A stretch of 37,749 nucleotides of DNA from an uncultured Thermoprotei archaeon (GCA_965367815.1 CBDUKN010000024.1:1-37749); one strand, 5' to 3'; shown: positions 5,844-26,864, counted from the first letter of the stretch. Program-made: numbers and translations. The notes: generated from the letters alone by a model not told the origin.

Positions 5844-6929
5844 CTATTTAGAAGAGAAGATTTTCTCGCAGAAACTACTATACAGTATTACCTTTTTAGC
5901 TTCAACATCTTCCAGGAAGCAGCCCCAGCCTCCTACAGTTACTTTTCCTTCATTACTTTTAACTACTATACTGTAGCTGAGCCAGTTTTCGCCTATACTA
6001 TAGTCTATTACTTCGCCTTTAATATAGGCCGGCTCTTTAGACTTAACATATGATCCCTCTATTTCAACATATACTGGGCCGAGATTATTTTTGAACAATA
6101 TGTCTACGTCCTCTACTAAACGCCAGAAGTGAGTATAGGAGAGAGGTTTGCTGAAAAGATTTAGGTTTGGACCTACATCAGTTGATGTTAGCCACAGAGC
6201 TAAGTGGAAAAAGTCGTTTATCATTCTGAGGAGGTTTTCATCCTCTACTATCATGGCGTAGCTTTCATCGAGATAAGGCATTTCGTTGCTGGTTTTTAGG
6301 TAGAAGACTACGCCTACTTCTCTGTCGATGAAGAGAGTAGATACAGCAGGTATACTTCTTACTTTAACTCTAGCGTACTTCGATAGAGTGTTTACGTAAA
6401 ATTTTGTTTTCATAGAGTCCGTCTCATAGATTACTAGCGATAAGTTTACGCCGTTTCTTCCTAGAGCACTTAGCTTCGATGAAAACTTTTTGAGCAAATA
6501 ATCAGGAGTTGCCAGCGCCAAGCTAATGGCACTCTTGTTCATAAGGTCTCTTACTCTTCGAATAATGTTATCTAATCCACTTACCACCCATAATCCTCCT
6601 TTCTCGTACTTTTCTAGAGAAAGTACTTTTCTTAAAAGCTCTTTAATTGTATTTTTTCTCTCCTCATATTTTTTGAGAAGATTTTCTAGGCTGTAGTCAG
6701 GGTCTACTATTCTGTATACTTTAGGTCTTTTGCTTTGAGACTCTATGAGACCCTTTTCTTCGAGACTTCTTAGAACACTGTATATTTTCGATAAAGGTAT
6801 TTTTGCTCTTCTAGCAATATTTGGAGCAGTAGTTTCGCGGTAGAGAGCTAGAGCTATGAATGCTCTTGCCTCGTAGTTGCTTAAACCTAGTCCCATTAGA
6901 TTCTTGATCAGCTCGTCGGCAATAGACAT
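5844..6929 (-). CDS. trmB: TrmB family sugar-sensing transcriptional regulator
   Basis: wHTH 'LGLSNYEARAFIAL...IARRAKIPLSKIYSVLRSLEEKGLI'. C-terminal sugar-binding signature 'VTVGGWGCFLEDVEA'. True start is likely ATG 6929; the extension to 7151 overlaps the upstream gene. Confidence 0.9.
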   Translation of the reverse strand: MSIADELIKNLMGLGLSNYEARAFIALALYRETTAPNIARRAKIPLSKIYSVLRSLEEKGLIESQSKRPKVYRIVDPDYSLENLLKKYEERKNTIKELLRKVLSLEKYEKGGLWVVSGLDNIIRRVRDLMNKSAISLALATPDYLLKKFSSKLSALGRNGVNLSLVIYETDSMKTKFYVNTLSKYARVKVRSIPAVSTLFIDREVGVVFYLKTSNEMPYLDESYAMIVEDENLLRMINDFFHLALWLTSTDVGPNLNLFSKPLSYTHFWRLVEDVDILFKNNLGPVYVEIEGSYVKSKEPAYIKGEVIDYSIGENWLSYSIVVKSNEGKVTVGGWGCFLEDVEAKKVILYSSFCEKIFSSK

Positions 6930-6936
6930 ATTTCTC

Positions 6937-6965
6937 TTTCCAAATATTAGAAAAATCTTAAAAAT
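6937..6965 (-). promoter_or_regulatory. trmB promoter: TATA-like TTTTTAAG followed by imperfect palindrome TTTCTAATATTTGGAAA
   Basis: Palindrome at 6937-6953 lies between the TATA-like box and the ATG. Confidence 0.35.
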
Positions 6966-6997
6966 TTTATGGGTCTTGTAGTTAAAATCGATAGCGC

Positions 6998-8956
6998 TTA
7001 GTAGGGGAACAGGAATCTGTATATTGTTCCTAGTCCTAGCACGAAGACCGCGAAGGCGTAGCCTAGGAAGACCCCTGAAGCTAGGCTTACTCCGTACTTC
7101 TCGTATACTTTTGCTCCACCTAGCTTCACTGTAATGTACTTTAGTAGCCAAGCTATGAACGCTGGGAATGCGTGTCCTTCGACTCCACCTATTGTTCCGA
7201 AGACTAGGCCTATTCCGTTAAGTGGGAACCAGTAGTACCTCATTCTCAGGAAGAAGACTATGCCTGATATAGCTAAGCCTACTAGTGCGTGAGGTATCCA
7301 TGGTGGGTCAGCTGGATACGGAGCTATAAGCGACGGATTAGTCCACCTGTCTGGCCACCACCAGCCGTCGACACTTACCGGTATTTTGCTGTAGCCTACA
7401 GCGTACCATGTGAATACTACTAGAGGACCTGCTACAATGTTTGTTAAAATTAGTGCTGATACTAGACCTTTGAATACTTGTGTTGGAGATAGACCCTTCT
7501 CTTCGCCTATTTTGTAGGCTAATAGCGAGTAGTAGAGAGGCCCGTAGGTGATAGACGATGCTGAGGCACAGATAAGGCTGTGTGCCATTAGCTGGACTTC
7601 GAAGTAGCTTCTATCTACTTCCTCGAGCCTTTTGCCTGGATAGAGTACGTGGTATGTGAGCGCCTGCAGTGTGCCCCACCAGCCGCCGCTGAAAGCGACT
7701 CCTGCTTCAGCATACTGTCTAGCCATAACTACGCTGTGTATTATTACGGCTATGAACAGCCATGCTGCAGCGTAGACTGCTGCTCCGGCTACAGCCATTA
7801 GGCCGACTGCCGCCAAGAACGTGACTGCTAGCAGTGTGTAGGAGAAAGAGTAGCCTATTTTTCCTTCGCGTATTTCTTCTACAGGGTTTCCTTTGAAAGC
7901 TTTCTTGAGTGTGTCTACGTACCACTTCCAGTTGAGGAGGAGAGGCCAGAGGAATACTCCGAGAAACATTCCTACTCCTGCTAAAGCGTGGAGCTTTAGG
8001 GGATCCTGGCGTCCTATGAGGTCGCATCTAGCGTAGCTGTCTGCTAGAGCCGGGATGCCTGAGTAGTAGCCCATAGTGTACGCTATTTGGGGCAATATTA
8101 CTAGGAAGACTAGCCACGAAATCCATGCTGTAAACAGGACGTCGAGAGGCACGATGTAGTAGAGAGCTACTTCGACGGGTGATGTCTGGAAAGTGAATAC
8201 TCCAGCGTAGTTCTGCTTTACTACTGGCGAGAACACAACCAAGTCGAAGAGCGAGGGGATGCCGTAGCGGAATGGAGGCTGGTTCCAGCCATAGATGTTG
8301 GGGAACCATGGTAGAAGCTGGTACAGTATCCACGGCAAGTACACTAGGAAGCCTATTGCTATTCCTAGGTGGAAGAGCCATGACACCTTTTCTTCTCTAC
8401 CTAGAGCGAAGTCTACGACTCTCTCGAAGATCACTGCATGGGGGTATGAGAGCTTCTCTATTTTATTCCATCTTTCTCTGAAAATACCTGCTATAGAGAA
8501 CATCATTAGCGCACAGACTATGACGAAGAAGTACCAGTAGGCGATGCTTATCGCCCAGTCTCCCCAGGGAACAGCTACTCCGCCGGCTAGCGCAGGTCTT
8601 AATACATCAGCTGGAGGAGCCCAGAGCTCCGGTAAGAGCTCGTTGTACATTTTAGGCTGAAGCAGTCTTGCTCCCAGGAACTGATTCATGAAGCACCATG
8701 GATAGAAGTAGCTGCCCATAGCGAAGGCTATTAGCAGGAATACTATCATTAGACTCAAGTGCTGCTCGCTAATGTACTCTCTTATCCAGGGGCCTATTAG
8801 TATGAAGAGGTAGAGCAGGCCTAAGATGAGAGTAGTGCCGCTGATCGCGTCTAAGTGGAAGCCGAAGAGCAGACCTATGAAGGCTACTTCGTATGCAAAC
8901 AGCACTGTTATTGAGAGAGCTAATAAGAGTAGTATTACCCAGACTCTACTCCTCAT
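6998..8956 (-). CDS. OPT-like polytopic membrane protein (DUF6785/DUF6784-like)
   Basis: Many hydrophobic segments. 'FRERWNKIEKLSYP' motif. C-terminal 'RYYWFPLNGIG...FIAWLLKYITVKLGG.KVY' typical of this family as I recall it. Confidence 0.75.
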   Translation of the reverse strand: MRSRVWVILLLLALSITVLFAYEVAFIGLLFGFHLDAISGTTLILGLLYLFILIGPWIREYISEQHLSLMIVFLLIAFAMGSYFYPWCFMNQFLGARLLQPKMYNELLPELWAPPADVLRPALAGGVAVPWGDWAISIAYWYFFVIVCALMMFSIAGIFRERWNKIEKLSYPHAVIFERVVDFALGREEKVSWLFHLGIAIGFLVYLPWILYQLLPWFPNIYGWNQPPFRYGIPSLFDLVVFSPVVKQNYAGVFTFQTSPVEVALYYIVPLDVLFTAWISWLVFLVILPQIAYTMGYYSGIPALADSYARCDLIGRQDPLKLHALAGVGMFLGVFLWPLLLNWKWYVDTLKKAFKGNPVEEIREGKIGYSFSYTLLAVTFLAAVGLMAVAGAAVYAAAWLFIAVIIHSVVMARQYAEAGVAFSGGWWGTLQALTYHVLYPGKRLEEVDRSYFEVQLMAHSLICASASSITYGPLYYSLLAYKIGEEKGLSPTQVFKGLVSALILTNIVAGPLVVFTWYAVGYSKIPVSVDGWWWPDRWTNPSLIAPYPADPPWIPHALVGLAISGIVFFLRMRYYWFPLNGIGLVFGTIGGVEGHAFPAFIAWLLKYITVKLGGAKVYEKYGVSLASGVFLGYAFAVFVLGLGTIYRFLFPY

Positions 8957-10496
8957 GTTTCCTCACCCTCTTCTTACGGTAAGCACGTCCTCTTCCAGCA
9001 ACATATCCTACCACAAAAATCACTGCGAGAAGAACTGCTACAAGTATACGTGTACGATACACTGTCAGCTCTAGTTTCTCTTTTGTAGACCTCAGACTCG
9101 CTATTTGCTTAGACATATTTTCTATTTTCTTTTCGAGCTCTGTTACAGCGCTCTGCAGCTCGAATATTTCCTTCATCTTAGCGAGCTCTCCTGGAAGGCT
9201 TGATATTTTCTCTGCCGGCTTAACAATAATCGTAGGCGATACAGCAAAGTACTCACGGTAGACTTTCTCGGCGTATTCTACTGGATTATTTGTAATGTTT
9301 TCATCGAATACTGCTATTATCGACTTGTACGGGAAACTCATAGCTGTGTAGTAGGTGTGAATACCTTCGTCGTCGAAGCTCCAGAGCACCGAGTCTAGTC
9401 CTAGTGTCGGGAATATGAAGACAAAGCCTTTCTTCATAGACGGGTCTGTTGATATGTACCAGCCTTCTTTAATGAGAGAAACAGGGACTTTGACGTCTTC
9501 TCTGCGAGAAAAGTTTCCAGCACCGCTCACTATGACTAGCTTGTATAGTCCTCCTTTGCCGACTCCTCCCCACTCTCTGTTAGCTAAGTTTACTTCAAGA
9601 AACATTCCGGGCTTAGCGTTCTTCCCTGTTATATCTAAGTAGGCGTAAATCCATGTCTGGTTTACGTAAAGTATGTACGTGAATACAGGGTATACGTCTG
9701 TCAAATTGTAGTAGGAAGCTGTTAAAACTACTTTAATTATTCCTCTCACAGGGCCTTCCTTCATGAAGACTACTTTTCCTCCACCAGTCATGGCGTCGGG
9801 GTTGTGCTCTATCCAGCCGGGGTCAGCTGGACAGAAGAGTCTGCTCCACTTCCATAAGAGGCTCATGTACTCTGAGCTCTGCTTAACTATATCGTATCCC
9901 GTCTTGTTTACCACTATAGAGAATATTGCTCCAGACATCCAGGCCGCTTTAACTGCTACAGTAGCCGTAATTAAGCCATTTGACAGGTCGTAGGCCTCGC
10001 TCATGAACTCGGGAGACTCCTTTTTTATTCTCGATATAAGGCCGTATTCTTTTACTCTGACTTTAATAGGGAAAGATACTTTAGGGAGCTTGCTCACTTT
10101 CTTGGCTACGAATACTTTATACTCGTTGCTTTGACCTGCTGGAATAGGCTTGACTGTGAGGAATACTAGCTCGTCTTCTTCCGAGAAGCCGTTAAGATCT
10201 AAGTCGTCTATCTGGCTTGGAATAACGTGGTCTCCGTGGAGCACGGCTGCAGTATTCCAGTCAATATCGTCTTCCTCAGTTTTAGTCACGCCGAACACGT
10301 CTACTTCTCCTTTAGGCAACGCTGCAGCCAGAGTCTTGAGCTCAACTACTATAGGGTAATTAGCCGGAATGCTGTGAGTGCTAGGTGCTTTAACTACAAT
10401 AGTTATCAAATAATATTCGTTAACAGGCTCAGAGTGCACGAGGACAATAGAGAAGAAGAGTATAGTAAATAAAATAAAAGCGCTTAATTTTTCCAT
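8946..10496 (-). CDS. Surface protein: signal peptide, DUF4861-like beta-rich domain, coiled coil, C-terminal TM anchor (paralog A)
   Basis: Hydrophobic N-terminus; 'IPSQIDDLDLNG..EEDELVF'; 'EGPVR'; heptad stretch; TM followed by a basic tail. Confidence 0.65.
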   Translation of the reverse strand: MEKLSAFILFTILFFSIVLVHSEPVNEYYLITIVVKAPSTHSIPANYPIVVELKTLAAALPKGEVDVFGVTKTEEDDIDWNTAAVLHGDHVIPSQIDDLDLNGFSEEDELVFLTVKPIPAGQSNEYKVFVAKKVSKLPKVSFPIKVRVKEYGLISRIKKESPEFMSEAYDLSNGLITATVAVKAAWMSGAIFSIVVNKTGYDIVKQSSEYMSLLWKWSRLFCPADPGWIEHNPDAMTGGGKVVFMKEGPVRGIIKVVLTASYYNLTDVYPVFTYILYVNQTWIYAYLDITGKNAKPGMFLEVNLANREWGGVGKGGLYKLVIVSGAGNFSRREDVKVPVSLIKEGWYISTDPSMKKGFVFIFPTLGLDSVLWSFDDEGIHTYYTAMSFPYKSIIAVFDENITNNPVEYAEKVYREYFAVSPTIIVKPAEKISSLPGELAKMKEIFELQSAVTELEKKIENMSKQIASLRSTKEKLELTVYRTRILVAVLLAVIFVVGYVAGRGRAYRKKRVRKHEE

Positions 10497-10518: not shown

Positions 10519-12072
10519 TTACTTAGACTCCTTTTTCTTTCTAGCGCCTACAAAGTATCCTATAGCCAGACCTACTACTAGACCTACTACTAGGAGTACT
10601 CCTTGCATTGACTGAGCTGTACTTAGGCTGGACTTCAGGCTGCTTATCTCAGACTCTAGTTCACTTATCTTGCTCTTGTAGCCGCTTATCTCCTGGTTTA
10701 AGCTCTCTATAGTTGACTGTGCCTGCGCTAGCTGCGACTTGAGGTTCTTTATTTCATTGTTTAGTGAGCTTATTTCGCTCTTTAGAGATTCAATTTCTTT
10801 CTGAGCACCCTCAAGGACTACGACTGGTAGGAGCTTTGCTTCCTCTTCTTTAACAACCTCTACTTTAATGTCGGCAGTAGAGTAGCTGTAGACAGTACGT
10901 ATGTATGCGAACGAGTCGTTTGCCACGCTCTTGTCGAATAGTACTAGTATTCTGTAGAATGGTATAGGTATACCTTCCTCGTAGTGTAGTACTATTTCTG
11001 CTCCGGGGCTGCCCCACTCTAGTTTAATTAAGTTTCCGAGAGGATAGAATATTACAGCGAAGCCTTCTAGCTTTTCTTTATTGTATACAGCAATCCATGT
11101 TTCAGTGAGGTTTTCTTTTCTGAGGCTAGTACCCTGCATTCTAGAAAGCTCTCCTACTCCAGGAACATATACTGTGTCGTGGTTTGTTCCCTGATCAGCT
11201 AAGTCGATGAAGCTGGCTTTTACTGGTACTTTAGTGCCGGGCTTGTATCCAGGACCTGTTACTGTGAGCTCTAACTTCACGTAGCTCCAGCCTTTGTAGA
11301 CAGAGTACTTCTTTACAGCATATACGTCTGCTAGCTGTCCGTGAGGTGTTGTTGACTGTAGGACTACTACTGCTCTCACAGGACCTGTGCTCATGTAGAG
11401 TACTTTGAATCTTGGGTTCTTCTCAGCCCATCCTGGGTCTCCTTCAGCTAGATATCGTGACCATCTCCATCCAGTTGAGCCCTTCTCTCTACCCTGTTTA
11501 ACTACATCGTATCCCGTCTTCTTTATTATAGCTGAGAACACTGTTCCTGCAATCCAGTCAGACTCGTTTAGAATAACTACTTTAATTAAGTCGTTTTCTA
11601 GAACTATGCCGGTGCCTAGCTCGGCCATGTCTTCGTATTTAGGTACTATTGTTACTTTACATACTTCTTCATATGTAGGTGCAGGTAGCTTGTAGCCTTT
11701 CTCTGCTACTAGTATCTTGTATGTAACAGAGCCTCCTGCTGGGATGTCTTCTACTAGTTCAAAAGCTATTTCGTAGTCGTCTTCGCTTGTACCAAGCTTG
11801 TCTACCTGTGAAGGTACTAGAGTATCTCCGTAGAGTACGTAGACAGTGCTCCAGTCATAGGATCGTGTTACTGCTGCTTTCAAGTCTTTAACTTTGATTA
11901 CTACTGGTGTTCCGGCCTTAAGCTCTACTGGAGTAGTTATTTTGACATATATGTAGTAGTAGTGCGCTTTCGGAGAAGCATTAAGCGGAAGAATTAGTGT
12001 CAACGCCAGTAGGACTAGTGGTAATAGAAGCAGTTTCTTTCTTACCACCTTTAGGTGGTTAATTTGTTGCAT
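10519..12072 (-). CDS. Surface protein, paralog B (same architecture, longer coiled coil)
   Basis: 'VPSQVD....DDYEIAF', 'KTGYDVVKQ', 'WRWSR...DPGW..NP' and 'GPVR' are shared with paralog A. About 60-aa heptad stalk, then TM and RKKK. Confidence 0.65.
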   Translation of the reverse strand: MQQINHLKVVRKKLLLLPLVLLALTLILPLNASPKAHYYYIYVKITTPVELKAGTPVVIKVKDLKAAVTRSYDWSTVYVLYGDTLVPSQVDKLGTSEDDYEIAFELVEDIPAGGSVTYKILVAEKGYKLPAPTYEEVCKVTIVPKYEDMAELGTGIVLENDLIKVVILNESDWIAGTVFSAIIKKTGYDVVKQGREKGSTGWRWSRYLAEGDPGWAEKNPRFKVLYMSTGPVRAVVVLQSTTPHGQLADVYAVKKYSVYKGWSYVKLELTVTGPGYKPGTKVPVKASFIDLADQGTNHDTVYVPGVGELSRMQGTSLRKENLTETWIAVYNKEKLEGFAVIFYPLGNLIKLEWGSPGAEIVLHYEEGIPIPFYRILVLFDKSVANDSFAYIRTVYSYSTADIKVEVVKEEEAKLLPVVVLEGAQKEIESLKSEISSLNNEIKNLKSQLAQAQSTIESLNQEISGYKSKISELESEISSLKSSLSTAQSMQGVLLVVGLVVGLAIGYFVGARKKKESK

Positions 12073-12143: not shown

Positions 12144-12458
12144 ATGAACAGACTTTACTTAAAAAGAAATCTTATTCTAAGCACACTACTTGTAGCTCTT
12201 CTTCTCTCGGGCATAGCTGTAGCAGGGCCTCTTGAAGAGAAGCTCAAAGAGCTTAAAAAAATATACAACGACAAACTTGCAGAGTACGCTAAGCTAGAGA
12301 AAGCGTATAATGAGCTTTCAGCTGAAGTACAAAGCCTGTTCAATGAGCTGTTTACATTGAGATTAAGCATTATTGCCTTAGGAATAGTAGTATTTGTAAT
12401 AGGATTTATCATAGGCTATAAGCACGAAATGAAAATAACTTATTCTAAAGAAAAATAG
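12144..12458 (+). CDS. Small protein: signal peptide + coiled coil + TM anchor
   Basis: 'LLLSGIAVA' signal, heptads 'LEEKLKELKK...LEKAYNELSAEVQSL', TM 'IIALGIVVFVIGFIIG'. Confidence 0.7.
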   Translation: MNRLYLKRNLILSTLLVALLLSGIAVAGPLEEKLKELKKIYNDKLAEYAKLEKAYNELSAEVQSLFNELFTLRLSIIALGIVVFVIGFIIGYKHEMKITYSKEK

Positions 12459-12462
12459 CTGT

Positions 12463-14307
12463 TTAGTAGGGTAGAAGCCATATAGATTTACTTACTAGTT
12501 TTACTACAGTCAGTAGGAGTCTTAGTGAAGTGTCTCCCACTAGGAAGCCCATTACCATGTAGGCTGAGACTTTAGACCAGTTTTCTCTGAAGTGTTTAGC
12601 TATAAAGTAGTTGCCTACAAGAGAGCCTATGAACTGCGCTATAATGAAGCTTGGAGGCTGAATAATTCCTGTGACGAGAACTACTGGTATCCATGCTTTA
12701 TGCAGAATGAAGTCGCTTACTAAGTATATTGCTGTTCCTGCAACTAGTCCCGCCAGAATATTTTGTTCTCTAAATAAGTACCCTGTCCAAAGCCATTTCT
12801 GGAATCTCCAGAACTCTATTGCTTCTACAGGCCATCCTGTAACAGTATAGGGGTAGGCGCTTGAAGGTATTGGAGCAACGCTCCAGAGCAGAGAGACGTA
12901 GAAGAAGCTCATAATGAAGCCTAGGGTTATTACCAGGAAGTATGCTTTAATGTAGTCTGATAGCCTGCACTTGAGTATCTCGGCCATTTTAAGATGCTGT
13001 GCTACAGTGGAGCCTCCTGTGTAGACTTGAATTGGAGCGAAGAAAGCTTTAGGGTCTCTGTATCCACTGAAGTAGATTACTATTTCCTTGAGGTAGGGGA
13101 CATCGAACCCTATAGTTACACCCGCCGCGTATGTCTGGAGCATTGTTACTATAAAGGACCACGCTACTACTAGGAGGAGTAAAATCCATAGAGGAAAGCC
13201 TGGCACGAATATGTACACCATGATTACTGAGGCTGTAGACGCTATTAGGTACATGAGAAGATAAAACGACCCTTTTGCTCCACCTGATACTCCTTTCATT
13301 AACTTGAATGCTTTAAGTAGATTCTTGTACCTGAAAATCATTGGTGCTACAGCTGACGCTATGCCTAAGCCTATAGCTACGCTGAGCCAGAAGTATATCT
13401 GAGACTTCTGGTAAATCCACAGCCACGAAAAGCCCGGCCTCCACTTAGCTTCGAGAGGCCACAGGTCCTTCAGCGTGATAATATGGTTTCCTACAATATA
13501 TGCGGCGGCCATACCTACGAGCTGGGCTAAAGTTACTTCGACGGGGAGTATTAGTCCTAAGACGTATTGGCTTAAGTCAGTTGGTATTAGTAGAAGTGCT
13601 CCGGGGAAAACACTGTCTGCTATTGGAGTCAAGTCTACTGGCTGGCGTGTTGGCAGAATTACGCCCAGCATGTAGGGTATAATGTCGACTAGGAAGCAGT
13701 ATAGGAGGCCTGCTACTATTGCTAGCAGAAATATTCTGAGTTCAGCTGATCTTTTCTCAGCTATAACATCTATTACTGTGGCTTGGCTTGAAGCCCAGGG
13801 GAATTCGAGCTTATATGTTACTCCGTACAGGTTGTATGCAAAAAGTCCTAGTGAGAGGTTCGCTACAGCGCTAAGTATTACTGAAAAAGCTAGCACTAGA
13901 AGTGGGGTAGCCCAAGCTGGATCGAGGAAAGTTCTAAGCTGCATTACTCTAAGCGCATCGCTTCCCACGGGAGCGTAGAACGGCGGCACTAGCTTAGAAA
14001 CGCCGAGCATTATTGCTATTTCGCTGTTAGCGAAGTAGAGTCTCTTAATTAAATCTACTGCAAACCACGTCGATGTCCAGAGGCCTATCCACTCAAACGT
14101 CATGATGATGAATATCTCTTGTTTCCTAAGTCTGAGGCCGAAAATTCCCGATAGCTCGACCCAGAGCAGAAGTATTATCCACACTGAGAGAGGCATTATT
14201 TCTCCCATAACGAGGTAGTAGTAGATTATAGCTGGCTCTAGAAGCAGTACTGCGAAGAATAGGGCTATAATAGATCTCCAGGTTAAACCTTTCTCGTACT
14301 CATTCAT
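12463..14307 (-). CDS. OPT/YSL-like polytopic membrane protein
   Basis: 'KGLTWRSIIAL' N-terminal motif, 'KLEFPWA', many TM segments. ATG overlaps the stop of the upstream 1464-aa gene (ATGA). Confidence 0.75.
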   Translation of the reverse strand: MNEYEKGLTWRSIIALFFAVLLLEPAIIYYYLVMGEIMPLSVWIILLLWVELSGIFGLRLRKQEIFIIMTFEWIGLWTSTWFAVDLIKRLYFANSEIAIMLGVSKLVPPFYAPVGSDALRVMQLRTFLDPAWATPLLVLAFSVILSAVANLSLGLFAYNLYGVTYKLEFPWASSQATVIDVIAEKRSAELRIFLLAIVAGLLYCFLVDIIPYMLGVILPTRQPVDLTPIADSVFPGALLLIPTDLSQYVLGLILPVEVTLAQLVGMAAAYIVGNHIITLKDLWPLEAKWRPGFSWLWIYQKSQIYFWLSVAIGLGIASAVAPMIFRYKNLLKAFKLMKGVSGGAKGSFYLLMYLIASTASVIMVYIFVPGFPLWILLLLVVAWSFIVTMLQTYAAGVTIGFDVPYLKEIVIYFSGYRDPKAFFAPIQVYTGGSTVAQHLKMAEILKCRLSDYIKAYFLVITLGFIMSFFYVSLLWSVAPIPSSAYPYTVTGWPVEAIEFWRFQKWLWTGYLFREQNILAGLVAGTAIYLVSDFILHKAWIPVVLVTGIIQPPSFIIAQFIGSLVGNYFIAKHFRENWSKVSAYMVMGFLVGDTSLRLLLTVVKLVSKSIWLLPY

Positions 14308-18698: not shown

Positions 18699-18843
18699 TT
18701 TACCCCCTCTCGCTGGTTAAATAATTATACAGTATTTAAATTTAGCTTTCAGGCTTTTAAGCCACTTTTTACATACAGTCAGTTTGCCGCTAGATAAATT
18801 ACTTTGAGACAATAGTTTTAAATAAACTAATCGGAGAGATACT
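18699..18843. promoter_or_regulatory. Divergent promoter region between transport and enzyme arms
   Basis: TTTAAAT-type boxes upstream of both genes (about 18733-18743 and 18815-18824). GAGGGGG SD before ATG 18698. Confidence 0.5.
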
Positions 18844-19917
18844 GTGATGTCTTTGTCTGGCCTCGTTTACATAGATTCATGCGCCAAGAAAATAAACGAG
18901 TATAGACGTCCGCAGACAAACGACATATTTAAAAGAAGGTGTATGATCCCGCCCCATAAAATACTTCTCACTAATTTGGCTGAAATAAAGCCTATTTCCG
19001 CATTTAACCCCGGTATGCTTCTAGAAAACGGTGTGCTTGAAGTATATGCCAGAGTAATAGTAGGATACTTCGAGTACGCAAGTATGATAGCGAAGATAGA
19101 GTTACCTCTAAACTCGCTGGAGGAAGGTGTTTTCTCTAGAGAAATAGACGCAAAAGTAGTAGTAGGCCCTGATACATGGCTTGATATATGGGGTGCTGAA
19201 GACCCTAGAGTATTCTACTTAGAGAAAAACAAAGTAATGGTATATACTGGCAAAACGGAGAAGTTTTATGAAAGCAGCTACAATAAAACAGTTCCAGTAA
19301 TCGCAGTCTACGACAAGTCTGCCAATAGGTGGACTAAGGTATCTTATGTAGCTGTGCCGCATCCTCTCGATAAACTGGTTACATTTAATAAAGACACATT
19401 CCTCGTCAAAATGCTCGGCGACGAAAAAATACATGTTTTCCACAGACCTGTAATAGCAAACTTCCCTACTTCTCTCTGGTATGGAACATCCAGCAAAGAA
19501 ATTTCCGCCGAGTCTAAGAGCATAGACCCCCTAGTCGTAGAAGACAATAGGATCGTTATGCTTCCATCTGAATTCGAGTACAATATAGGGTGGAGTGCTC
19601 CTCTCCTCGAAGTAGACGGCAAGTATATTGAAATAGCGCATGCTCAGTGCAGCGACTGCTACTACAGGCTCTACGCCCTCGAGCTAGAGTACAGTGAAGA
19701 CAAGGGCTTCGAGATCACAGGTGTTTCTGAGACATATATCATGGAGCCTAAAGAACTATACGAAAAATATGGAGACCGCCCCTGCGTAGTTTTTGCATGT
19801 GGAGCCTGTATTGTAAAAGACAAAGTTATAGTATCATATGGCGCGGGAGACTACTTTATAGGGCTAGCTGAAACAGATCTCTCGACTCTACTCAGCTCAA
19901 TAAAGAGAATCAAGTAG
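18844..19917 (+). CDS. GH130 family beta-mannoside phosphorylase/glycosidase (5-bladed propeller)
   Basis: 'AFNPG', 'Y.R', 'GAEDPRV', 'NKD', 'FHRP', 'YEKYGDRPCVVFACG', 'SYGAGD'. No signal peptide. Confidence 0.85.
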   Translation: MMSLSGLVYIDSCAKKINEYRRPQTNDIFKRRCMIPPHKILLTNLAEIKPISAFNPGMLLENGVLEVYARVIVGYFEYASMIAKIELPLNSLEEGVFSREIDAKVVVGPDTWLDIWGAEDPRVFYLEKNKVMVYTGKTEKFYESSYNKTVPVIAVYDKSANRWTKVSYVAVPHPLDKLVTFNKDTFLVKMLGDEKIHVFHRPVIANFPTSLWYGTSSKEISAESKSIDPLVVEDNRIVMLPSEFEYNIGWSAPLLEVDGKYIEIAHAQCSDCYYRLYALELEYSEDKGFEITGVSETYIMEPKELYEKYGDRPCVVFACGACIVKDKVIVSYGAGDYFIGLAETDLSTLLSSIKRIK

Positions 19918-19929: not shown

Positions 19930-21948
19930 GTGGCCGAAGGAAAGCGAGGTTTAAACCTTATCTTAATAGGCGCCGTAGTAGTAATAATGGCTTTAGTCGC
20001 TTTATCTTTACTCAACGTCTGGAAGCCGCCCAGTCCAGAACACGTAGAAAAGCCTACAGAAACTGGCGAAGTACTAGCCAAAGTTTCTGCAAACAATATT
20101 GTTTTAGAAGTACGCAAATATTCTTCCGACAAAGACTTCACTAAAGTATCTCTAGTAGCCTACTACAGTGAGAAACAAGACTACTGTCTTGAAGTAAAAG
20201 GTCTCGGTGGAGAAGACTACGAGTTCTTCTCCTACGCTAAAAGCGTTTCAGTCGAAGAAAAAGACGACAAAATAGTAGTATTGATTTCAGGTGAAAAAGA
20301 GAACTACTGGAACTATACTGCAGAAATAACGCTTTACAAAAACTACCCTGGCTTCGCTGAAGTAGAAATAAAAGTCACTCTCAAGGGATCGAGTCTGCGT
20401 GGAGGAAGAGGAGCATTCTACGCGACTAACGGCAAAGGCCAGCTAGCGTCAACAGTATATGGCGGAGAAGCTGGATGGCACTACCCCTTGGTTTCAGTCA
20501 CTTACATCAAGTACCCAATAGTAGTCTTAATGAAAGATTCCACTGGAAAATACTTGTTCTCAGTAAGCTACTGTGATTTAACTGGAAAAGGCAGTATCTA
20601 TGACAGAAAGCTAGCTGAGTACAGCTTCGAGATGTCACGCGACGCTTTTGGACTTAAGTCGCCTTACCTCAACGGACTTAAAGGAACATACATAGCCGCA
20701 AAATACTATCTCTACGTATGGAGAAATGAAAAAGATCCCTTAAGAGGAGTACTCAGTTTCCTAGACATTATAGCTAGTAAAATTAAAGAAAAGAACTATG
20801 ATTTAAGCAAAAACAAAGTCTATATAACAAACATGATTTCAACGCTACAAAATCCACCAGACTTAAAAGATATTTATATGATTCAAGGAGACCTATATCT
20901 ACTTAAAGCGTATGTAGGAGATAAGAGAAAATATGTCTCTGAAAGCGAGTTTATTACTCAGGCAAATGTTTTACTCGGATTGACGTACCTGTACAATAAG
21001 ACTCAGGCTCCCGAGTACAAAAACCTCATATTAAATATTCTTAGGAATACAAGTTACTTTGACGTATACTATGATAAGCTACGAGGAATCTACAGCAATA
21101 ACTGGATGAGCGCTGGAAGAATGGATTCATGGTACCAGATAACGAACCCAAGTATGCTCCTTGCAGCACACTCCCTTGCTCCCGATTTAGTTAAAATAGA
21201 TTTAGTTAAAATGAAGAAAAACGCAAACTGGCTGATTAACTTCGCTAGGAAAGTAAAGTACTCGTTCCCAGTATTCGTTTACCCTGACTACACTATACAG
21301 GAGCCCGGTAAAGAAGCGGACGCCGCCTTAGGGTACTCCTACCTAATGGTTAAACTATACTTGCTTACAGGAAACAAGACTTACCTCGAGGAAGCTTCGG
21401 CGAGCCTAGAGCACTACTTGACAGTAGACTACAGTAAGCTCTATGAAGCACACTTAGCTCCCATGGGAGTGGCTGCAGCAGCTCACTTATACGCGATTAC
21501 AGGTGACAGCAAGTACCTCGACTACCTCTATAAGCTAGAGTACCTGTGCTTAAAGTGGATTAACCTATACCGAGGCAACGTAATAGAAGAAGAAGTACCC
21601 TTTACCCTCGTCTCAGCTATGCCTAACATATACTCAGCAGCCTTTGAGTACGGGCTCTTTAAGTATTTCCTCGAAGAAGCATATCTAGTTCTAAAGAAAC
21701 ACGAAAAGAACCCTGTAGCACCGCTGTACAGATTCTACTCAATTTCAGTCGCTATTACATCAAAATACGCTTTCCCAAAGCTACTTGGAATAAGCTACAG
21801 GAACTTAGGCTACGGCAAAATAGATGAAAAATGCTGGGTTCCAGTAGAAGACATCTACCCGCTACAAAAAGCCTTCCCTGGGCAAATACCTCAAGAAATA
21901 TATGGCTTTGGCTCGCAGATAATAGCGCTGTACTGCGAAGACCCCTAG
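19930..21948 (+). CDS. Membrane-anchored protein, N-terminal beta domain + C-terminal (alpha/alpha)-barrel; putative glycoside-active enzyme
   Basis: N-terminal TM. Repeated 'LYxxTGxxxYL' helix-turn motifs (LYNKTQAPEYK, LYLLTGNKTYL, LYAITGDSKYL). Acidic motifs DSWY, EAD, YEA, FEY, VED, QEIYG. Confidence 0.6.
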   Translation: MAEGKRGLNLILIGAVVVIMALVALSLLNVWKPPSPEHVEKPTETGEVLAKVSANNIVLEVRKYSSDKDFTKVSLVAYYSEKQDYCLEVKGLGGEDYEFFSYAKSVSVEEKDDKIVVLISGEKENYWNYTAEITLYKNYPGFAEVEIKVTLKGSSLRGGRGAFYATNGKGQLASTVYGGEAGWHYPLVSVTYIKYPIVVLMKDSTGKYLFSVSYCDLTGKGSIYDRKLAEYSFEMSRDAFGLKSPYLNGLKGTYIAAKYYLYVWRNEKDPLRGVLSFLDIIASKIKEKNYDLSKNKVYITNMISTLQNPPDLKDIYMIQGDLYLLKAYVGDKRKYVSESEFITQANVLLGLTYLYNKTQAPEYKNLILNILRNTSYFDVYYDKLRGIYSNNWMSAGRMDSWYQITNPSMLLAAHSLAPDLVKIDLVKMKKNANWLINFARKVKYSFPVFVYPDYTIQEPGKEADAALGYSYLMVKLYLLTGNKTYLEEASASLEHYLTVDYSKLYEAHLAPMGVAAAAHLYAITGDSKYLDYLYKLEYLCLKWINLYRGNVIEEEVPFTLVSAMPNIYSAAFEYGLFKYFLEEAYLVLKKHEKNPVAPLYRFYSISVAITSKYAFPKLLGISYRNLGYGKIDEKCWVPVEDIYPLQKAFPGQIPQEIYGFGSQIIALYCEDP

Positions 21949-23307
21949 GTGAAGACCATGTCTAGCAGACTTAGTTCGCCTTTTAGAGCATACGATATAA
22001 GAGGCATATACGGCGAAAACCTGACAGATGAATTTGCCTGCAAACTAGGCTACGCTTTAGGAAAATTCATTAAAGAAGAAAAAATAGCTGTAGGAAGAGA
22101 CTCACGGTACTCTTCACCTGCACTCGCAGAAAACTTAATTAAAGGACTTACTGCTTCCGGCAAAAAAGTAGACTATGTGGGCGAAGTACCGAACCCTATC
22201 ACATACTTCTACTGCTGGAGAGAAAAGATTTCCGGAGCCTATGTTACAGCAAGCCACAATCCTCCACAATACAATGGATTTAAGCTGATTAGAGGAAACG
22301 GCACAAGCTTTACACACGAGTACAGTGAACTCAAAAAACTCGTCTCCGAAGTCAAGACAGTGCCCTCTCTCGAAAAAAATGAAGCAAGTACTGTTGACGC
22401 CGCCAAAAGCTACACGGAATTCGTCTTAAGCCAAGTCAATATTTCACGAAGAATCAAAGTGGTCGTAGAGACTTTTGGAGGAGTAGTCAACAAAGTAATA
22501 CCCGTTCTCTTAGAAAAACTCGGCATAGAGTACAAAATACTTCACGGCGAAATTAGAGGAGACTTCTATGGCTTAAGGCCCGAGCCCAAGGGAGACAACT
22601 TAGATTTACTGAGAAAAGAAGTAGTGGGCTTCGGCGCAGACTTCGGAGTAGCTTTCGACGGAGACTCCGATCGATCAGTCTTTGTAGACGATAAAGGAAG
22701 AGTACTTAACGGTAGTCAAGCAGGAGTAGTCTTCGTAAAACACTTAGTTAAAAAGGGCTCTACAGTAGTACTTACACCCGATACTTCACGAGTACTAGAG
22801 AAAGTCATTAAGGATCTTGGAGGAAAAGTAGTATACTCTCGTATAGGACACGGCTTTATCGAAGAAAAAGTAAGAGACACTAAGGCCTTAATAGGAATAG
22901 AGCAGAGCTCACACTTCTACTTCGGGTACCTCTACCCGTTCTCTGACGGAATACTATCGGCGCTGATCATGGCTCAAATAGCTTCCCATGAAAAAATCTC
23001 TAAGATAGTAGACGAGTATCCAGTGTACTCTATGGAAAAAATCTACATTGACGCCTACAGCGACGAAATTAAACACAAAGTAGTATCAATTCTAAAGAAA
23101 GAACACCCCGACGCAATAGACATACACGACGGATTCAAAGTATTTCTCGAAGACTCATGGATACTAATAAGAGTTTCACAAACAATGCCTGAAGTAAACC
23201 TAGTCATAGAGGCTCCCACCGAAGATAAACTGAAAGAACTGAAGGGAAAGTATATTGAAAAAATAAAGAGTCTAGTCGCTAAATTTTCAAAAGAATATTC
23301 TAAGTAA
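21949..23307 (+). CDS. Phosphomannomutase/phosphoglucomutase
   Basis: 'FRAYDIRG', 'TASHNP' phosphoserine loop, 'FDGDSDR' metal loop, 'GIEQSSH'. Confidence 0.93.
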   Translation: MKTMSSRLSSPFRAYDIRGIYGENLTDEFACKLGYALGKFIKEEKIAVGRDSRYSSPALAENLIKGLTASGKKVDYVGEVPNPITYFYCWREKISGAYVTASHNPPQYNGFKLIRGNGTSFTHEYSELKKLVSEVKTVPSLEKNEASTVDAAKSYTEFVLSQVNISRRIKVVVETFGGVVNKVIPVLLEKLGIEYKILHGEIRGDFYGLRPEPKGDNLDLLRKEVVGFGADFGVAFDGDSDRSVFVDDKGRVLNGSQAGVVFVKHLVKKGSTVVLTPDTSRVLEKVIKDLGGKVVYSRIGHGFIEEKVRDTKALIGIEQSSHFYFGYLYPFSDGILSALIMAQIASHEKISKIVDEYPVYSMEKIYIDAYSDEIKHKVVSILKKEHPDAIDIHDGFKVFLEDSWILIRVSQTMPEVNLVIEAPTEDKLKELKGKYIEKIKSLVAKFSKEYSK

Positions 23308-23360
23308 AAATAGTCTGTTTTAAATAATATCGAGTAAAGTTAAATAGTTCTCGCGAAATT

Positions 23361-24374
23361 TTGTTTAATGGTGATTTAGTGATAAATAAGCCTCTATTTT
23401 ATACAGTAATAATTCTCCTCTTATTGTTATCTGGAATAATTTACTTCTCTTTAATTCAGCAGACTAAACGCAAGCCAAATTATGTCACACTTTACGGCAA
23501 AATAGTTGACTGCGAAAATAAGCCTGTAAAAGCATATGTTTATTTTTCGAGGGCAGAAACTCCGACCCTAGTTACATGTCCAATAGCATTTACTGCTACT
23601 GACAGTAATGGCTCATTTAGTATAACACTGCCTTCCGGGCTCTATCTCGTTGAAGTATATGCAATTGGATATGAAGTCCGCGAAATAATTATCGACGCTA
23701 GCAGTAACTCTAAAGTAACAATTAGGCTATTTAAATTAAGTATACAGATACCTGATTACTTAAAAAACTATTATAGTAAAATTCTTATTTTATACGACTT
23801 TAACATGACCGAGAGTATTCCTGCTAAAGAATCATTAATTTACTTATACAATTTATCAAAATCATGTAACCAAGTAAGTGTAATAGTTTTCACATATGAT
23901 ACTAAGTCGATTAAATCACTTAATTTGCCACTAAATCAGAGTGATAAGTGGATTGTTTTGAGAAAGCCCTTTCCTTTGAAAATAGGCGCTACACCTTCAG
24001 TTGCCGTCTTCTATAATAATAAAGCCGTACTTCTTAAAAAAGGCTGTATTTACAATTATTTATTTAAGTTAGTAAACATTTTGCTGAATGAAAATATTAC
24101 TTTATTTAATAGAATCGAAATTAATGGTACATTACTTAAAGTTACTTTAAATAAGAGTCCTCTTAGAAAAATGTATCTTTTGCTTAGCAATATTATATAC
24201 AATTTTAGTAGCAGTACTTTTACGAAAACTACATGTGCGAGGCTAAAAATAACTAAAATCACGTGCTCTCTAGTTCTTCCTAAAAATCTTTCTGCTGAAG
24301 CATATGTAATTTTAGTTGATAAAAAAGGTAGAATATTTGACTGCGAGAGAATGACTCTAAGCTTCAAGCACTAA
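23361..24374 (+). CDS. AT-rich membrane-anchored protein with carboxypeptidase-regulatory-like (transthyretin-fold) domain
   Basis: N-terminal TM, then 'LYGKIVD.ENKPV.A.V...TATDSNGSFSITLPSGLYLVEVYAIGYE'. Confidence 0.6.
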   Translation: MFNGDLVINKPLFYTVIILLLLLSGIIYFSLIQQTKRKPNYVTLYGKIVDCENKPVKAYVYFSRAETPTLVTCPIAFTATDSNGSFSITLPSGLYLVEVYAIGYEVREIIIDASSNSKVTIRLFKLSIQIPDYLKNYYSKILILYDFNMTESIPAKESLIYLYNLSKSCNQVSVIVFTYDTKSIKSLNLPLNQSDKWIVLRKPFPLKIGATPSVAVFYNNKAVLLKKGCIYNYLFKLVNILLNENITLFNRIEINGTLLKVTLNKSPLRKMYLLLSNIIYNFSSSTFTKTTCARLKITKITCSLVLPKNLSAEAYVILVDKKGRIFDCERMTLSFKH

Positions 24375-24447
24375 CGTTTTCTTTAAAAGTATTCAAGTGT
24401 AGTAGATGATTAAATATCAGCGTTTTACTTAACTCTACGGGAGAAAC

Positions 24448-25449
24448 GTGCTAGACCTACTGTCTTGCGGTTTTCTTGTAGCAGATATTGTTGTAGCAGA
24501 CTTAGATAAAATAGCTGAGCCCGGAGAACTAGTATTTGCTCCTAAGGGAATAACGATTAGTGTTGGCGGGCACCCAGCTAATATTGCTATAGACTTGGTT
24601 AAGCTCGGAGTACCAGGTGACAGAATAGGTGTTGCTGGCGCAGTAGGCAGCGATATTTTCGGAGAATTTATTGAAAGAGTTTTAGCGAGCTACGGCCTCA
24701 AGCTTTTTCTCCAGAAAGTCGATAGAAGTACTAACAAAAACGTTATCTTAGTTGTTAAAGGCGAGGACAGACGTTTTCATGTAGAGCTCGGAGCTAGCCG
24801 AGTCTTCTCGCCCTCGATGGTACTTAAACTAATTGACGAAACTAGACCTAAAGTATTCTACTTGGCGTCCGGCATACTAGATTTGATAGACGAGAGAATT
24901 GTAGAAATCTTTAAGAAAGCTAGAGAGAAAGGAGCACTTACTTTCGCGGACATAGTTAAGCCTTATGGAAAAGACTGGAGCTACATTGTTCCAGCGATGA
25001 AATATATTGACGTGTTTCACTGCAATGAAAGCGAGCTTAAAGAACTAACTGGAACAGAAAGCCTTAAGGAGGCTGTAAATAGGGTTTTTTACTATGGAGT
25101 AAGACTGCTGCTTATTACAATGGGCGAGAAAGGAGCCTTGGGAGCTACTAGACGCATGAATATTCTTCAGAAAGCATTTAAAGTAAATGTAGTGGATCCT
25201 ACTGGCGCTGGCGATGCTTTCTGTGCAGGCGTAATATACAAGTTACTGGAATACGGCATTACAGGCGATAAAGTAAGCGAAATCGACGTAGATAAGCTTA
25301 AGCAAATACTGCTTTACGCGCAGGCAGTAGGTGCTTCCGCCTGTACTGCTCCGGGTACCACAGCTGGAGTCTCTAGAATGAAAGTCGAGGAGCTGGTAAA
25401 AGCCCAGGGAGAAGAAATACTCGCGAATACTGCTATTAATACGGTTTAG
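24448..25449 (+). CDS. PfkB/ribokinase family carbohydrate kinase
   Basis: 'GGHPANIA', 'GAVGSDIFG', 'NESE', 'TMGEKG', 'DPTGAGDAF'. Confidence 0.92.
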   Translation: MLDLLSCGFLVADIVVADLDKIAEPGELVFAPKGITISVGGHPANIAIDLVKLGVPGDRIGVAGAVGSDIFGEFIERVLASYGLKLFLQKVDRSTNKNVILVVKGEDRRFHVELGASRVFSPSMVLKLIDETRPKVFYLASGILDLIDERIVEIFKKAREKGALTFADIVKPYGKDWSYIVPAMKYIDVFHCNESELKELTGTESLKEAVNRVFYYGVRLLLITMGEKGALGATRRMNILQKAFKVNVVDPTGAGDAFCAGVIYKLLEYGITGDKVSEIDVDKLKQILLYAQAVGASACTAPGTTAGVSRMKVEELVKAQGEEILANTAINTV

Positions 25450-25469
25450 TAGAATAGACTGGTGAATAG

Positions 25470-26864
25470 ATGTATACCCCTAGAGTAGGCGTAATTACTT
25501 TAGGAGATCCTCGAGAAGAAGTTCCCTGGAGAGAAAAAGAGGACCGCAAGCATAGAGAGCTTCTCGAGAAGTTAAAGGAAATAGGTGAGCTCGAGGTCTA
25601 TGGCACAGAGAAAGTTGTTAGGAGCCTTAAGGAAGCTGAAAGCGGAGTAGAAAAACTTCTAGTAAAGAAACCCGATTTAGCTGTACTGCATATTCCTGTG
25701 TGGACTTATCCGTCGATAACAGTTAGAGCAGCTGAAGTAGCTTCTAAAGAAGTAGCACTCCTCGTGGTCTACGGAGACGGCGTGCTCAGCGGAATACTTG
25801 CTTCAGGCGGAGCTTTAAGCCAGGTAGGTATACGTAGAGAGCTTCTCTGGGGCCCGATGAATGAAGAAAACTTAGGTAGACTAGTTAAGTGGGCTAGAGC
25901 CGCCATGACAGTAAAAAGGCTTAGAGGAATGACTTACGGTGTATTTGGAGGAAGAGCACTAGGCATGTACACAGTAGTCGCCGATCCCTCCCAAATAAAA
26001 ATGGTCTTCGGAGTCGACGTAGAGCACGTAGACCAGCTAGAAATACTTAGAAAAGCAGAGAAAATACCCGACGAAGAAGTAGAGAAGCACTACAAGTGGC
26101 TAGTAGAGAGAGTAGGAAAAATAGAGTTTAACGGCAAAATACTGACTGAAGAAAAACTGAAAAAGCAGATTAGAGCCTACCTCGCCTTAAAAGAGCTAAT
26201 AAAAGAACATGGCTTCGATTTCTGCGGCGTAAAATGTCAGCCAGAGCTGAGTGACAAGTACGTAAACCTCTGTGTAGCCGTAGCGCTACTAAACGATCCT
26301 TATGATGCTGAAGGACCCAAAGAGCCCATAGTATGCGCCTGTGAAGTAGACCACGACGGAGCACTAACAATGCAAATACTCAAAATAGTTTCAGGAGGAA
26401 AACCAGCGACACTAATGGACTTCCTAGTCTACGACACCGAAGAAGAACTACTTTACTTAGGAAACTGCGGAGGCATGGCGACATGGTTCGCTGAAACCTC
26501 CGATAAACCGGAGGAAAACCTCAAAAACGTGCATCTTCTGCCACAGGTTCAAGGAAAAGCTGGAGGCGCTGCAACACAGTATGTAGCTCCCGAGAAAACA
26601 TTCACCTTGGCGAGGCTATATAGAATAAAAGGAGAATACCACATGGTAATACTTAAGGCAAAAAGTGTCAGGGTAGATAGAAGTAAGCTGAAGAAAAGCA
26701 TATGGCCTTGGCCCCACATAGTAATCAAAATAAATAGAGAGAAATTCAACAAGCTTATAGAAACAATTAGAGCAAACCACCTGCACGCCGTAGAAGGAGA
26801 CTACACAGAAGAACTGTCGAAAATATGCGAATTACTCAACATAAAGCTACATAAAATACAGTAA
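25470..26864 (+). CDS. L-fucose/D-arabinose isomerase family protein
   Basis: 'GGRALGMYT', 'KCQPELS', 'ACEVD.DGALTMQIL', 'NCG', 'WPH', 'ANHLHAV.GD'. GGTGA SD. Confidence 0.85.
   Translation: MYTPRVGVITLGDPREEVPWREKEDRKHRELLEKLKEIGELEVYGTEKVVRSLKEAESGVEKLLVKKPDLAVLHIPVWTYPSITVRAAEVASKEVALLVVYGDGVLSGILASGGALSQVGIRRELLWGPMNEENLGRLVKWARAAMTVKRLRGMTYGVFGGRALGMYTVVADPSQIKMVFGVDVEHVDQLEILRKAEKIPDEEVEKHYKWLVERVGKIEFNGKILTEEKLKKQIRAYLALKELIKEHGFDFCGVKCQPELSDKYVNLCVAVALLNDPYDAEGPKEPIVCACEVDHDGALTMQILKIVSGGKPATLMDFLVYDTEEELLYLGNCGGMATWFAETSDKPEENLKNVHLLPQVQGKAGGAATQYVAPEKTFTLARLYRIKGEYHMVILKAKSVRVDRSKLKKSIWPWPHIVIKINREKFNKLIETIRANHLHAVEGDYTEELSKICELLNIKLHKIQ

Follow-up and report, generated by a model that had tools for sequence, protein, structure and literature searches.

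A conserved three-gene membrane module with an OPT/YSL-fold protein at a candidate beta-mannoside utilization locus of an uncultured Thermoprotei archaeon

The DNA analyzed here, called the window, is the whole 37.7-kb contig (C24; 37,749 nt; GCA_965367815.1 CBDUKN010000024.1:1-37749) of a 2.45-Mb, 99.4%-complete genome of an uncultured Thermoprotei archaeon, a genome that also encodes reverse gyrase. Window-matching DNA is listed in three DNA runs, two of them labelled hydrothermal vent metagenome, and no RNA run is listed. Between positions 5,844 and 26,864, a TrmB-family regulator, three large membrane proteins, and small or anchored surface proteins are encoded on one side of a divergent intergenic region, and sugar enzymes with two further anchored proteins on the other (Table 1). 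The subject of this analysis is the set of three large membrane proteins, which we call the triad: a 1464-amino-acid (aa) protein (the giant), a 614-aa polytopic protein (OPT-like), and a second polytopic protein carrying the domains DUF6785 and DUF6784 (DUF6785-like).

Table 1 Genes and intergenic region of the locus, from the regulator to the last sugar gene (positions in the window)
Feature	Position	Strand	Basis
TrmB-family sugar-sensing regulator	5844..6929 (open reading frame to 7151 from TTG)	-	PF01978 74.3 bits, PF11495 147.6 bits
DUF6785/DUF6784 polytopic membrane protein (triad component 3)	6998..8956	-	DUF6785 79.3 bits, DUF6784 35.6 bits
Surface protein CC1	8946..10496	-	signal/anchor, weak DUF4861-like beta-rich ectodomain, coiled coil, C-terminal transmembrane anchor
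Surface protein CC2, CC1 paralog	10519..12072	-	DUF4861 26 bits against a cut-off of 22.3; SlaB-stalk-like coiled coil
Small 104-aa signal/coiled-coil/transmembrane protein	12144..12458	+	translation; kept in related locus L022
614-aa OPT/YSL-fold polytopic protein (triad component 2)	12463..14307	-	AlphaFold2 model and Foldseek
1464-aa giant (triad component 1)	14304..18698	-	Peptidase_M28, MacB_PCD, FtsX in Pfam
Divergent AT-rich intergenic region, presumed promoter/operator	18699..18843	.	sequence between giant and GH130
GH130 beta-mannoside phosphorylase-family enzyme	18844..19917	+	PF04041 234.1 bits against a cut-off of 26
672-aa membrane-anchored extracellular protein, possibly (alpha/alpha)6 glycanase	19930..21948	+	N-terminal transmembrane segment; sub-threshold GH76
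Phosphomanno/phosphoglucomutase (PMM)	21949..23307	+	PGM_PMM domains I-IV
Membrane-anchored CarboxypepD_reg-like protein	23361..24374	+	PF13620 30.6 bits, below cut-off; N-terminal transmembrane segment
PfkB-family sugar kinase	24448..25449	+	PF00294 139 bits
Fucose/arabinose-isomerase-family sugar isomerase	25470..26864	+	Fucose_iso_C, N1, N2; PDB L-fucose isomerase E 3e-8

A previous interpretation of this DNA, the sequence-only reading, had described a glycan-utilization locus built on a non-canonical multi-component transporter. The gene classes it named are all present in Pfam scans and translations of the open reading frames (ORFs) of the window, and one gene had been missed, that of the CarboxypepD_reg-like anchored protein between PMM and PfkB. 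Of the three coiled-coil surface proteins it proposed, two are found on the minus strand (CC1 and CC2), and the third, as placed, is the 104-aa ORF on the opposite strand. The extracellular protein assigned to the alpha/alpha-barrel class does have an N-terminal transmembrane anchor, while the barrel itself derives only from GH76 matches below threshold (Pfam E 4e-4; GH76 in the PDB, E 0.11). That no MalEFGK-type ATP-binding cassette (ABC) transporter or major facilitator superfamily (MFS) transporter is encoded here holds as well, since ABC and MFS families have no Pfam match among the scanned ORFs of the window and the 59 ABC_tran matches of the genome are all on other contigs.

The first question concerns the two polytopic proteins. 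The OPT-like protein scores below the Pfam family OPT (PF03169, 17.1 bits against a cut-off of 25.8), and PDB sequence searches with profiles of both membrane families returned nothing meaningful. Nevertheless, its AlphaFold2 model (mean pLDDT 90.7, from a 53-sequence alignment) has barley YS1 as its only significant PDB match in Foldseek (7wst and 7wsr, TM-score 0.66-0.69, probability 1.00, E 5.7e-11 and 7.9e-10, with the next match at E 0.017), at about 14% sequence identity. The predicted structure thus shares the OPT/YSL fold of HvYS1, which the cited study describes as a proton-driven symporter that forms homodimers and for which an elevator mechanism is proposed (PMC9691689). The DUF6785-like protein exceeds the gathering scores of both of its Pfam families (DUF6785, PF20581, 79.3 against 25; DUF6784, PF20580, 35.6 against 26.4). 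When the profiles of the 614-aa and DUF6785 families were aligned with hhalign, the match covered the full length (594 columns, probability 99.7%, E 3.8e-27), which indicates that the two polytopic proteins of each triad are diverged paralogs within a single superfamily. Searching with a profile of the OPT-like family retrieved 1,295 cluster representatives (50% identity) with E up to 1e-3 among 1.84 billion, and there are indications from the ESM Atlas of bacterial (Armatimonadota) DUF6785 clusters as well. The OPT-like homologues are almost all named 'hypothetical protein' at NCBI, with one called 'OPT/YSL family transporter', and 5 of 50 carry a precomputed PF03169 assignment.

The giant, whose stop codon overlaps the start of the OPT-like gene by 4 nt, consists of a signal sequence, a PA/M28 ectodomain, a variable ectodomain, a bundle of three transmembrane helices, a first MacB-type transmembrane helix (TM1) followed by the periplasmic core domain (PCD) and by TM2-4, and a cytoplasmic C-terminal domain. 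Pfam recognizes MacB_PCD (30 bits), FtsX (55.7 bits), and Peptidase_M28 (PF04389, 43.2 bits). An alignment of the M28 domain with 2ek8, a PA-domain aminopeptidase, has E 7e-7, and we observe that the Glu-Glu pair of 2ek8, which we take to be the catalytic and metal-binding pair of M28 enzymes, stands opposite His-Tyr in the giant of the window. In an alignment of 77 giants, none has Glu-Glu at that stretch, the consensus being G-H-[WY]-Q. Judging from this loss in all 77 sequences, the M28/PA domain appears to be a conserved pseudo-peptidase, and an active M28 aminopeptidase was rejected on the same ground.

The residue loss bears directly on the proposal that the module takes up peptides or amides, with the M28/PA ectodomain binding or trimming peptides and the adjacent sugar genes being incidental, a proposal we regard as quite unlikely. 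Oligopeptides are among the substrates of the OPT family, the M28 fold is present in the giant, one further copy of the triad in the genome (on contig C3) adjoins a penicillin amidase and a weakly C25-like protein, and in the neighborhood tally described below 2 of 35 long neighbors are M28 peptidases and one is an amidohydrolase, all of which would fit such a role. Against it stand the missing Glu-Glu pair, the sub-threshold OPT score of the window protein, the synteny of GH130 and TrmB with the module in the related locus L022, and the recurrence of TrmB next to triads.

The C-terminal half of the giant (residues 760-1464) was modelled with pLDDT 87.8 from a 55-sequence alignment, giving three long helices, a short helix, the MacB-type TM1, a mixed alpha/beta PCD, TM2-4, and an alpha+beta C-terminal domain. 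Foldseek returned MacB-type membrane domains only (E 1.9e-10 to 8e-4), namely Spr0694-0695, MacB, LolCDE, HrtBA, BceAB, FtsEX, and YbbAP, with 5xu1 among the matched entries. A near-invariant V-T-P-S-L-E-R-K-W-K motif after TM4 precedes the conserved cytoplasmic C-terminal domain of about 160 aa (residues ~1304-1464, window 14307-14790), whose only fold matches are weak ones to START/Bet v1-like proteins; this domain could serve in ligand binding or coupling, standing in for the nucleotide-binding domain (NBD). Among the paralogs of the genome, identity between giants is lowest in the middle ectodomain and in the PCD, at 24-25% and with more gaps. The three-helix bundle is 26% identical and nearly gap-free, and identity reaches 35-38% in the M28/PA region, in the linker with TM1, in TM2-4, and in the C-terminal domain.

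No ABC ATPase adjoins any of the 14 giant FtsX proteins of the genome, whereas four ordinary small FtsX genes adjoin one each. An ATPase encoded in cis for the giant was therefore rejected, being neither fused nor adjacent in this genome, which leaves room for an ATPase acting in trans. In related loci, ABC ATPases mostly accompany FecCD or ABC-2 permeases or lie far from the giant. A second class of orphan FtsX giants of about 1,000-1,300 aa, lacking M28 and an adjacent ATPase, often occurs within a few kb of triads (C3:116339-119941, C3:130739-133777, C5:48748-51909, C7:57961-61071, and C20:33626-37564).

These features raise the alternative that the module is an export, surface-assembly, or mechanotransmission machine of the MacB, LolCDE, or FtsEX kind which borrows an ATPase from elsewhere, and which would extrude, anchor, or activate surface proteins such as CC1, CC2, and the extracellular enzyme instead of importing nutrients. 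The fold matches of the giant, which are to MacB-type exporters, extractors, and activators exclusively, are as expected for such a machine, as are the SlaB-like coiled-coil stalk of the CC proteins and the 59 ABC_tran matches of the genome, some of which are possibly shared. We nevertheless find this alternative improbable, because no ATPase adjoins any of the 14 giant FtsX proteins, in contrast to the four small FtsX genes, because ABC_tran accounts for only 3 of 150 short immediate neighbors of triads, because CC1 and CC2 are restricted to the window and L022, and because two partners with the YS1 fold of secondary transporters are not expected in an exporter of this kind.

A tblastn search of the window proteins against their own genome, followed by ORF calling and clustering, identified six complete triads, on contigs C1, C5 (two copies, C5a and C5b), C7, C3, and C24, and a seventh on C12 that is cut by the contig end. 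In addition, C12 has one giant without partners, and C19 opens with a DUF6785 fragment. When prokaryotes were scanned with one genome for each species, the giant had 104 relatives, and the 80 loci kept are all from archaeal metagenome-assembled genomes, with record titles naming Bathyarchaeia, Brockarchaeota, Thermofilales/Thermofilaceae, Caldarchaeales/Calditenuaceae, Thermoproteota, Nitrososphaerota, and 'Thaumarchaeota'. Ten of these loci have no full-length giant ORF (>1,200 aa). In the remaining 70, an OPT-like gene is directly adjacent in 54, a DUF6785-like gene lies at most three genes away in 40, and both partners are present in 39, counts which are lower bounds because many loci are cut by contig ends. 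The membrane genes form a conserved multi-component module, and in this respect the sequence-only reading was right about a non-canonical assembly. First-look candidates for the module reach dozens per genome. Within the phylum Thermoproteota, 53 of 301 sampled genomes and 23 of 129 genera have DUF6785, which is near-universal in some families and was not found in others among those searched. Limited literature searches found no published description of the triad, no paper with DUF6785 or DUF6784, and none pairing Thermofilum pendens with FtsX.

Seven giants (L066, L068, L070, L071, L076, L086, and L099, including records titled Caldarchaeales and Calditenuaceae) are followed by a different pair of genes in place of an OPT-like one. 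Both genes of the pair (339 and 296 aa) are conserved and lack Pfam matches, and these giants are preceded by aldo/keto reductase and GFO_IDH_MocA genes.

The genes on the other side of the intergenic region point to sugar catabolism. TrmB regulators usually control genes of sugar uptake and metabolism, and GH130 phosphorylases act on beta-mannosides. The TrmB protein of the window combines a helix-turn-helix domain (PF01978) with the C-terminal sugar-binding effector domain Regulator_TrmB (PF11495), and it scores far below all NCBIfam equivalog cut-offs. Its true start is likely the ATG near 6929, as the long ORF beginning at TTG overlaps the upstream gene. No inverted repeat of at least 10 nt is present in the divergent intergenic region. 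The closest solved structures to the GH130 enzyme are beta-1,2-oligomannan and beta-1,2-mannobiose phosphorylases. Its translation has no visible signal peptide, and together with PMM, PfkB, and the isomerase it makes up a catabolic set which requires an oligosaccharide importer.

The closest relative, locus L022, whose giant is 52% identical to that of the window, links these two halves. Its genes follow the order GH130 (E 8e-68), an 865-aa homologue of the 672-aa protein, giant, OPT-like, small coiled-coil ORF, CC2, CC1, DUF6785, a 640-aa ORF, and TrmB, all on one strand except the small coiled-coil ORF, and the 865-aa gene overlaps the giant by 4 nt. CC1 and CC2 (516 and 517 aa, 31% identical, E 6e-62), which among the loci occur only in the window and L022, each have an N-terminal signal/anchor, a weakly DUF4861-like start, a C-terminal coiled coil, and a transmembrane anchor. 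DUF4861 is described as a putative carbohydrate-binding family, of which BT3233 is needed for growth of B. thetaiotaomicron on glycosaminoglycans (PMC8121099). The 104-aa coiled-coil ORF, which runs against the operon in which it sits, with the OPT-like gene on one side and CC2 on the other, is a real gene, as it is kept in L022 in the same relative orientation (L022:16268-16591, phmmer E 1.7e-19).

TrmB stands beside triads in 7 of the 80 loci, in four arrangements (L022; the orthologous L024, L043, L065, and L074; L075; and L077); it ends the string of module genes in the window and in L022 and adjoins the giant in L075 and L077. For a broader tally, 185 dereplicated proteins (<50% identity, at least 110 aa) were taken from 272 neighbors within two genes of the triad block in 64 loci and scanned as two batches, 150 short and 35 long; only the 25 commonest families per batch were counted, so that single-member families of the first batch, including the GH130 of L022, do not appear. 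The long neighbors include GH129 (2), GHL6 (2), and GH42 (2), counts which may overlap on the same proteins, as well as GH106, GH66, GH127, GH57, a sulfatase, and an FGGY kinase. The short neighbors include GFO_IDH_MocA (7), TrmB (3), AP_endonuc_2 (2), and SIS (2). Within 10-kb flanks, FucI-like genes occur in five loci and PfkB in two. An association of homologous clusters with carbohydrate-active enzymes (CAZymes) or sugar regulators was a check named in the sequence-only reading. TrmB recurs beside triads and several glycoside hydrolase (GH) families occur among their immediate neighbors, with GH families absent from the 25 commonest among the short ones.

From these observations, the window may be read as a TrmB-controlled locus for the utilization of beta-mannosides (mannan or N-glycan fragments) in which the triad acts as the importer, a reading to which we give an even chance. 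Several points weigh against it. It is drawn from sequences and predicted structures, and the DUF4861 and GH76 similarities within it are weak. Sugars are not among the established substrates of OPT/YSL transporters, which are peptides and metal chelates, and to our knowledge every characterized MacB-type protein works with an ATPase. The commonest family among the short neighbors is URO-D (9 of 150), ahead of GFO_IDH_MocA (7 of 150), with no GH family in the 25 commonest; the only background for these tallies is the number of matches in the 2.45-Mb genome, 15 for URO-D and 23 for GFO. The URO-D pattern hints at a non-sugar substrate for some triads.

The other copies in the same genome also count against it, since five of six have no clear CAZyme neighbor. 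The C1 copy lies near a HAD hydrolase, a PHP protein, and a BNR protein; C5a near reverse gyrase and a P-type ATPase; C5b near IMPDH/GMP synthase, a CN hydrolase, a sub-threshold GH43-like protein, and a GFO oxidoreductase; C7 near a weak alpha/alpha-toroid protein and further FtsX giants; C3 near the penicillin amidase and C25-like protein mentioned above; and C12 near an ADP-ribosylglycohydrolase and DUF4932. Moreover, the catabolic genes of the window are divergent from the module and thus belong to a separate operon.

This divergent orientation, and the fact that most triads lack CAZyme neighbors, would also be expected if the sugar genes and the membrane module were functionally unrelated neighbors and the module had some other role. 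We consider such a coincidence unlikely, as the corresponding genes in L022 are co-directional and overlapping, and as the position of TrmB at the end of the module string or next to the giant is found in four loci, the window included.

A role in the uptake of metal chelates or cofactors, in the manner of YSL proteins, is very unlikely in our view. It has in its favor that the sole structural match of the OPT-like protein is the Fe(III)-phytosiderophore transporter YS1, and that the triad adjoins a FecCD/Peripla_BP_2 ABC importer in five orthologous Bathyarchaeia loci (L024, L043, L065, L074, and L101). However, no metal-related gene is present in the window locus, and the six to eight paralogs per genome with their varied catabolic neighbors do not suit a single micronutrient role. 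In the same five loci (~3000-9800), an ABC-2 exporter is also found just upstream of the triad, and TrmB lies between the ABC genes and the triad in four of them, the counterpart in L101 being a 307-aa ORF without a TrmB match.

Under the beta-mannoside reading, the polymer would be handled outside the cell by the anchored 672-aa enzyme and by CC1 and CC2, which might help to capture the substrate, given their weak similarity to a putative carbohydrate-binding family. Oligosaccharides would then enter through a membrane module made of the three triad proteins. By analogy with the homodimeric elevator-type YS1, the two OPT/YSL-fold paralogs may form a heterodimeric, ion-coupled translocator. 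The giant would be neither an enzyme nor an ATP-driven pump, acting as an extracytoplasmic receptor and scaffold, with its middle ectodomain and PCD capturing the substrate and its NBD-less MacB-type membrane domain anchoring the receptor and coupling it to the transporters. A complex prediction for the membrane helices of the giant with the OPT-like protein scored 0.01, which counts neither for nor against binding. Inside the cell, phosphorolysis by GH130 would supply mannose-1-phosphate to PMM, and PMM, PfkB, and the FucI-like isomerase would pass the products to glycolysis. Both divergent units would be kept repressed by TrmB as long as no oligosaccharide effector is present.

The module as a whole looks like a general, paralog-diversified nutrient-uptake system of Thermoproteota, not a glycan-specific one. 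The window copy would be its glycan-dedicated member, and some copies are probably tied to glycan catabolism. The glycan capture-and-import machine of the sequence-only reading is thus kept for the locus, where the GH130/TrmB synteny in L022 agrees with it, and given up for the module at large, whose other copies adjoin varied genes. We tentatively propose, as a possibility that may well prove wrong, that the triad represents an undescribed class of composite transporter in which an OPT/YSL-fold heterodimer of elevator-type secondary transporters is fed or gated by an ATPase-less MacB-type mechanotransmission protein with a pseudo-peptidase receptor ectodomain. In this proposal, the many paralogs of a genome would each be devoted to an organic substrate of their own, glycans in the case of the window copy and methoxylated, amide, or still other compounds at other loci, and the class would be the functional counterpart of SusC/D or of binding-protein-dependent uptake in Bathyarchaeia, Brockarchaeota, Thermofilales, and related archaea.

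All parts of the assembly come from known superfamilies (OPT/YSL by fold, DUF6785/6784, MacB-type FtsX, M28, TrmB, and GH130). Compared to barley YS1, the 614-aa protein has the same predicted overall fold and a similar size, but it belongs to a pair of diverged paralogs encoded with an FtsX giant, and its context suggests sugars and other organic substrates in place of the peptides and metal chelates transported by known OPT/YSL members. The giant shares with MacB-type (type VII) ABC transporters the four-helix FtsX domain with the PCD between TM1 and TM2, but it has no fused or adjacent NBD and carries about 750 aa of additional ectodomain with the pseudo-M28/PA domain, an extra three-helix bundle, and the cytoplasmic C-terminal domain. 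Acidobacterial duplicated orphan permeases (ADOP) are also of FtsX type and occur as numerous paralogs in a genome, without a gene for a cognate ATPase. The giant of the window is not a member of ADOP (TIGR03434, 26.8 bits against a cut-off of 622.3), and architecture and partners differ.

The analogy to a Bacteroidota polysaccharide utilization locus (PUL) applies to the logic of the locus, which unites a regulator, candidate surface binders, an extracellular enzyme, a candidate importer, and intracellular enzymes. It does not extend to the transporter, as the host is archaeal and neither a TonB-dependent SusC nor a SusD, nor any pair resembling them, is encoded by the window ORFs; the sole match to a SusC model (E 8e-4) falls on a CarboxypepD_reg-like stretch. 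Lacking the NBD, the catalytic pair, and SusC/D, the assembly is not a MacB-type ABC transporter, an M28 peptidase, or a PUL. The mal/TM sugar ABC operons of Thermococcales are regulated by TrmB, and the window shares with them an effector-domain TrmB beside the candidate uptake genes that it would control, though its candidate importer is not of ABC type. In bacterial GH130 loci, GH130 is accompanied by a phosphomutase, downstream sugar enzymes, and an ABC or symporter-type transporter; the window has GH130, the phosphomutase, and the sugar enzymes, with a candidate transporter of neither type. What is new here is the paralogy of the OPT-like and DUF6785 proteins, the predicted YS1 fold, the NBD-less MacB-type giant with its putative pseudo-M28 domain, and the conserved triad.

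Bathyarchaeia, Brockarchaeota, Thermofilales, and Caldarchaeales are abundant heterotrophs in sediments and hot springs, and their carbon uptake has been deduced almost wholly from ABC-transporter annotations, while the proteins of the module are currently annotated as 'hypothetical', 'peptidase', or 'permease'. Should the triad indeed be an importer, a major path of nutrient entry would be absent from the metabolic reconstructions of these lineages. The OPT/YSL superfamily would then acquire a new range of substrates and a new accessory-protein principle, and MacB-type domains a role independent of a dedicated ATPase. The window copy offers the best experimental entry, having the clearest substrate hypothesis (beta-mannosides) and a cognate regulator.

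The flanks of the locus contain several further genes. A HAD-family hydrolase just downstream of the TrmB gene is broken into the overlapping ORFs 4773-5183 and 5144-5494 (minus strand), reflecting a frameshift or an assembly error; an intact homologue of 249 aa is found at C1:214004-214753, divergently upstream of the C1 triad. A ThuA (trehalose-utilization-like) gene at 3113-3832 (minus strand), sugar-related and outside the span considered above, lies about 2 kb from the TrmB gene, and a URO-D family (MtaA/uroporphyrinogen-decarboxylase-like) gene at 1117-2262 (minus strand) adjoins a V4R-domain gene at 2-559. On the other flank, a Cas6-family gene is located at 31424-32335 (plus strand); a search of 26800-37749 found no CRISPR array, and no further cas genes were detected among those of the window. 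Finally, the ORF at 33661-34122 (plus strand) matches only positions 95-248 of the 249 of a xylose-isomerase-like TIM barrel family and may be truncated.

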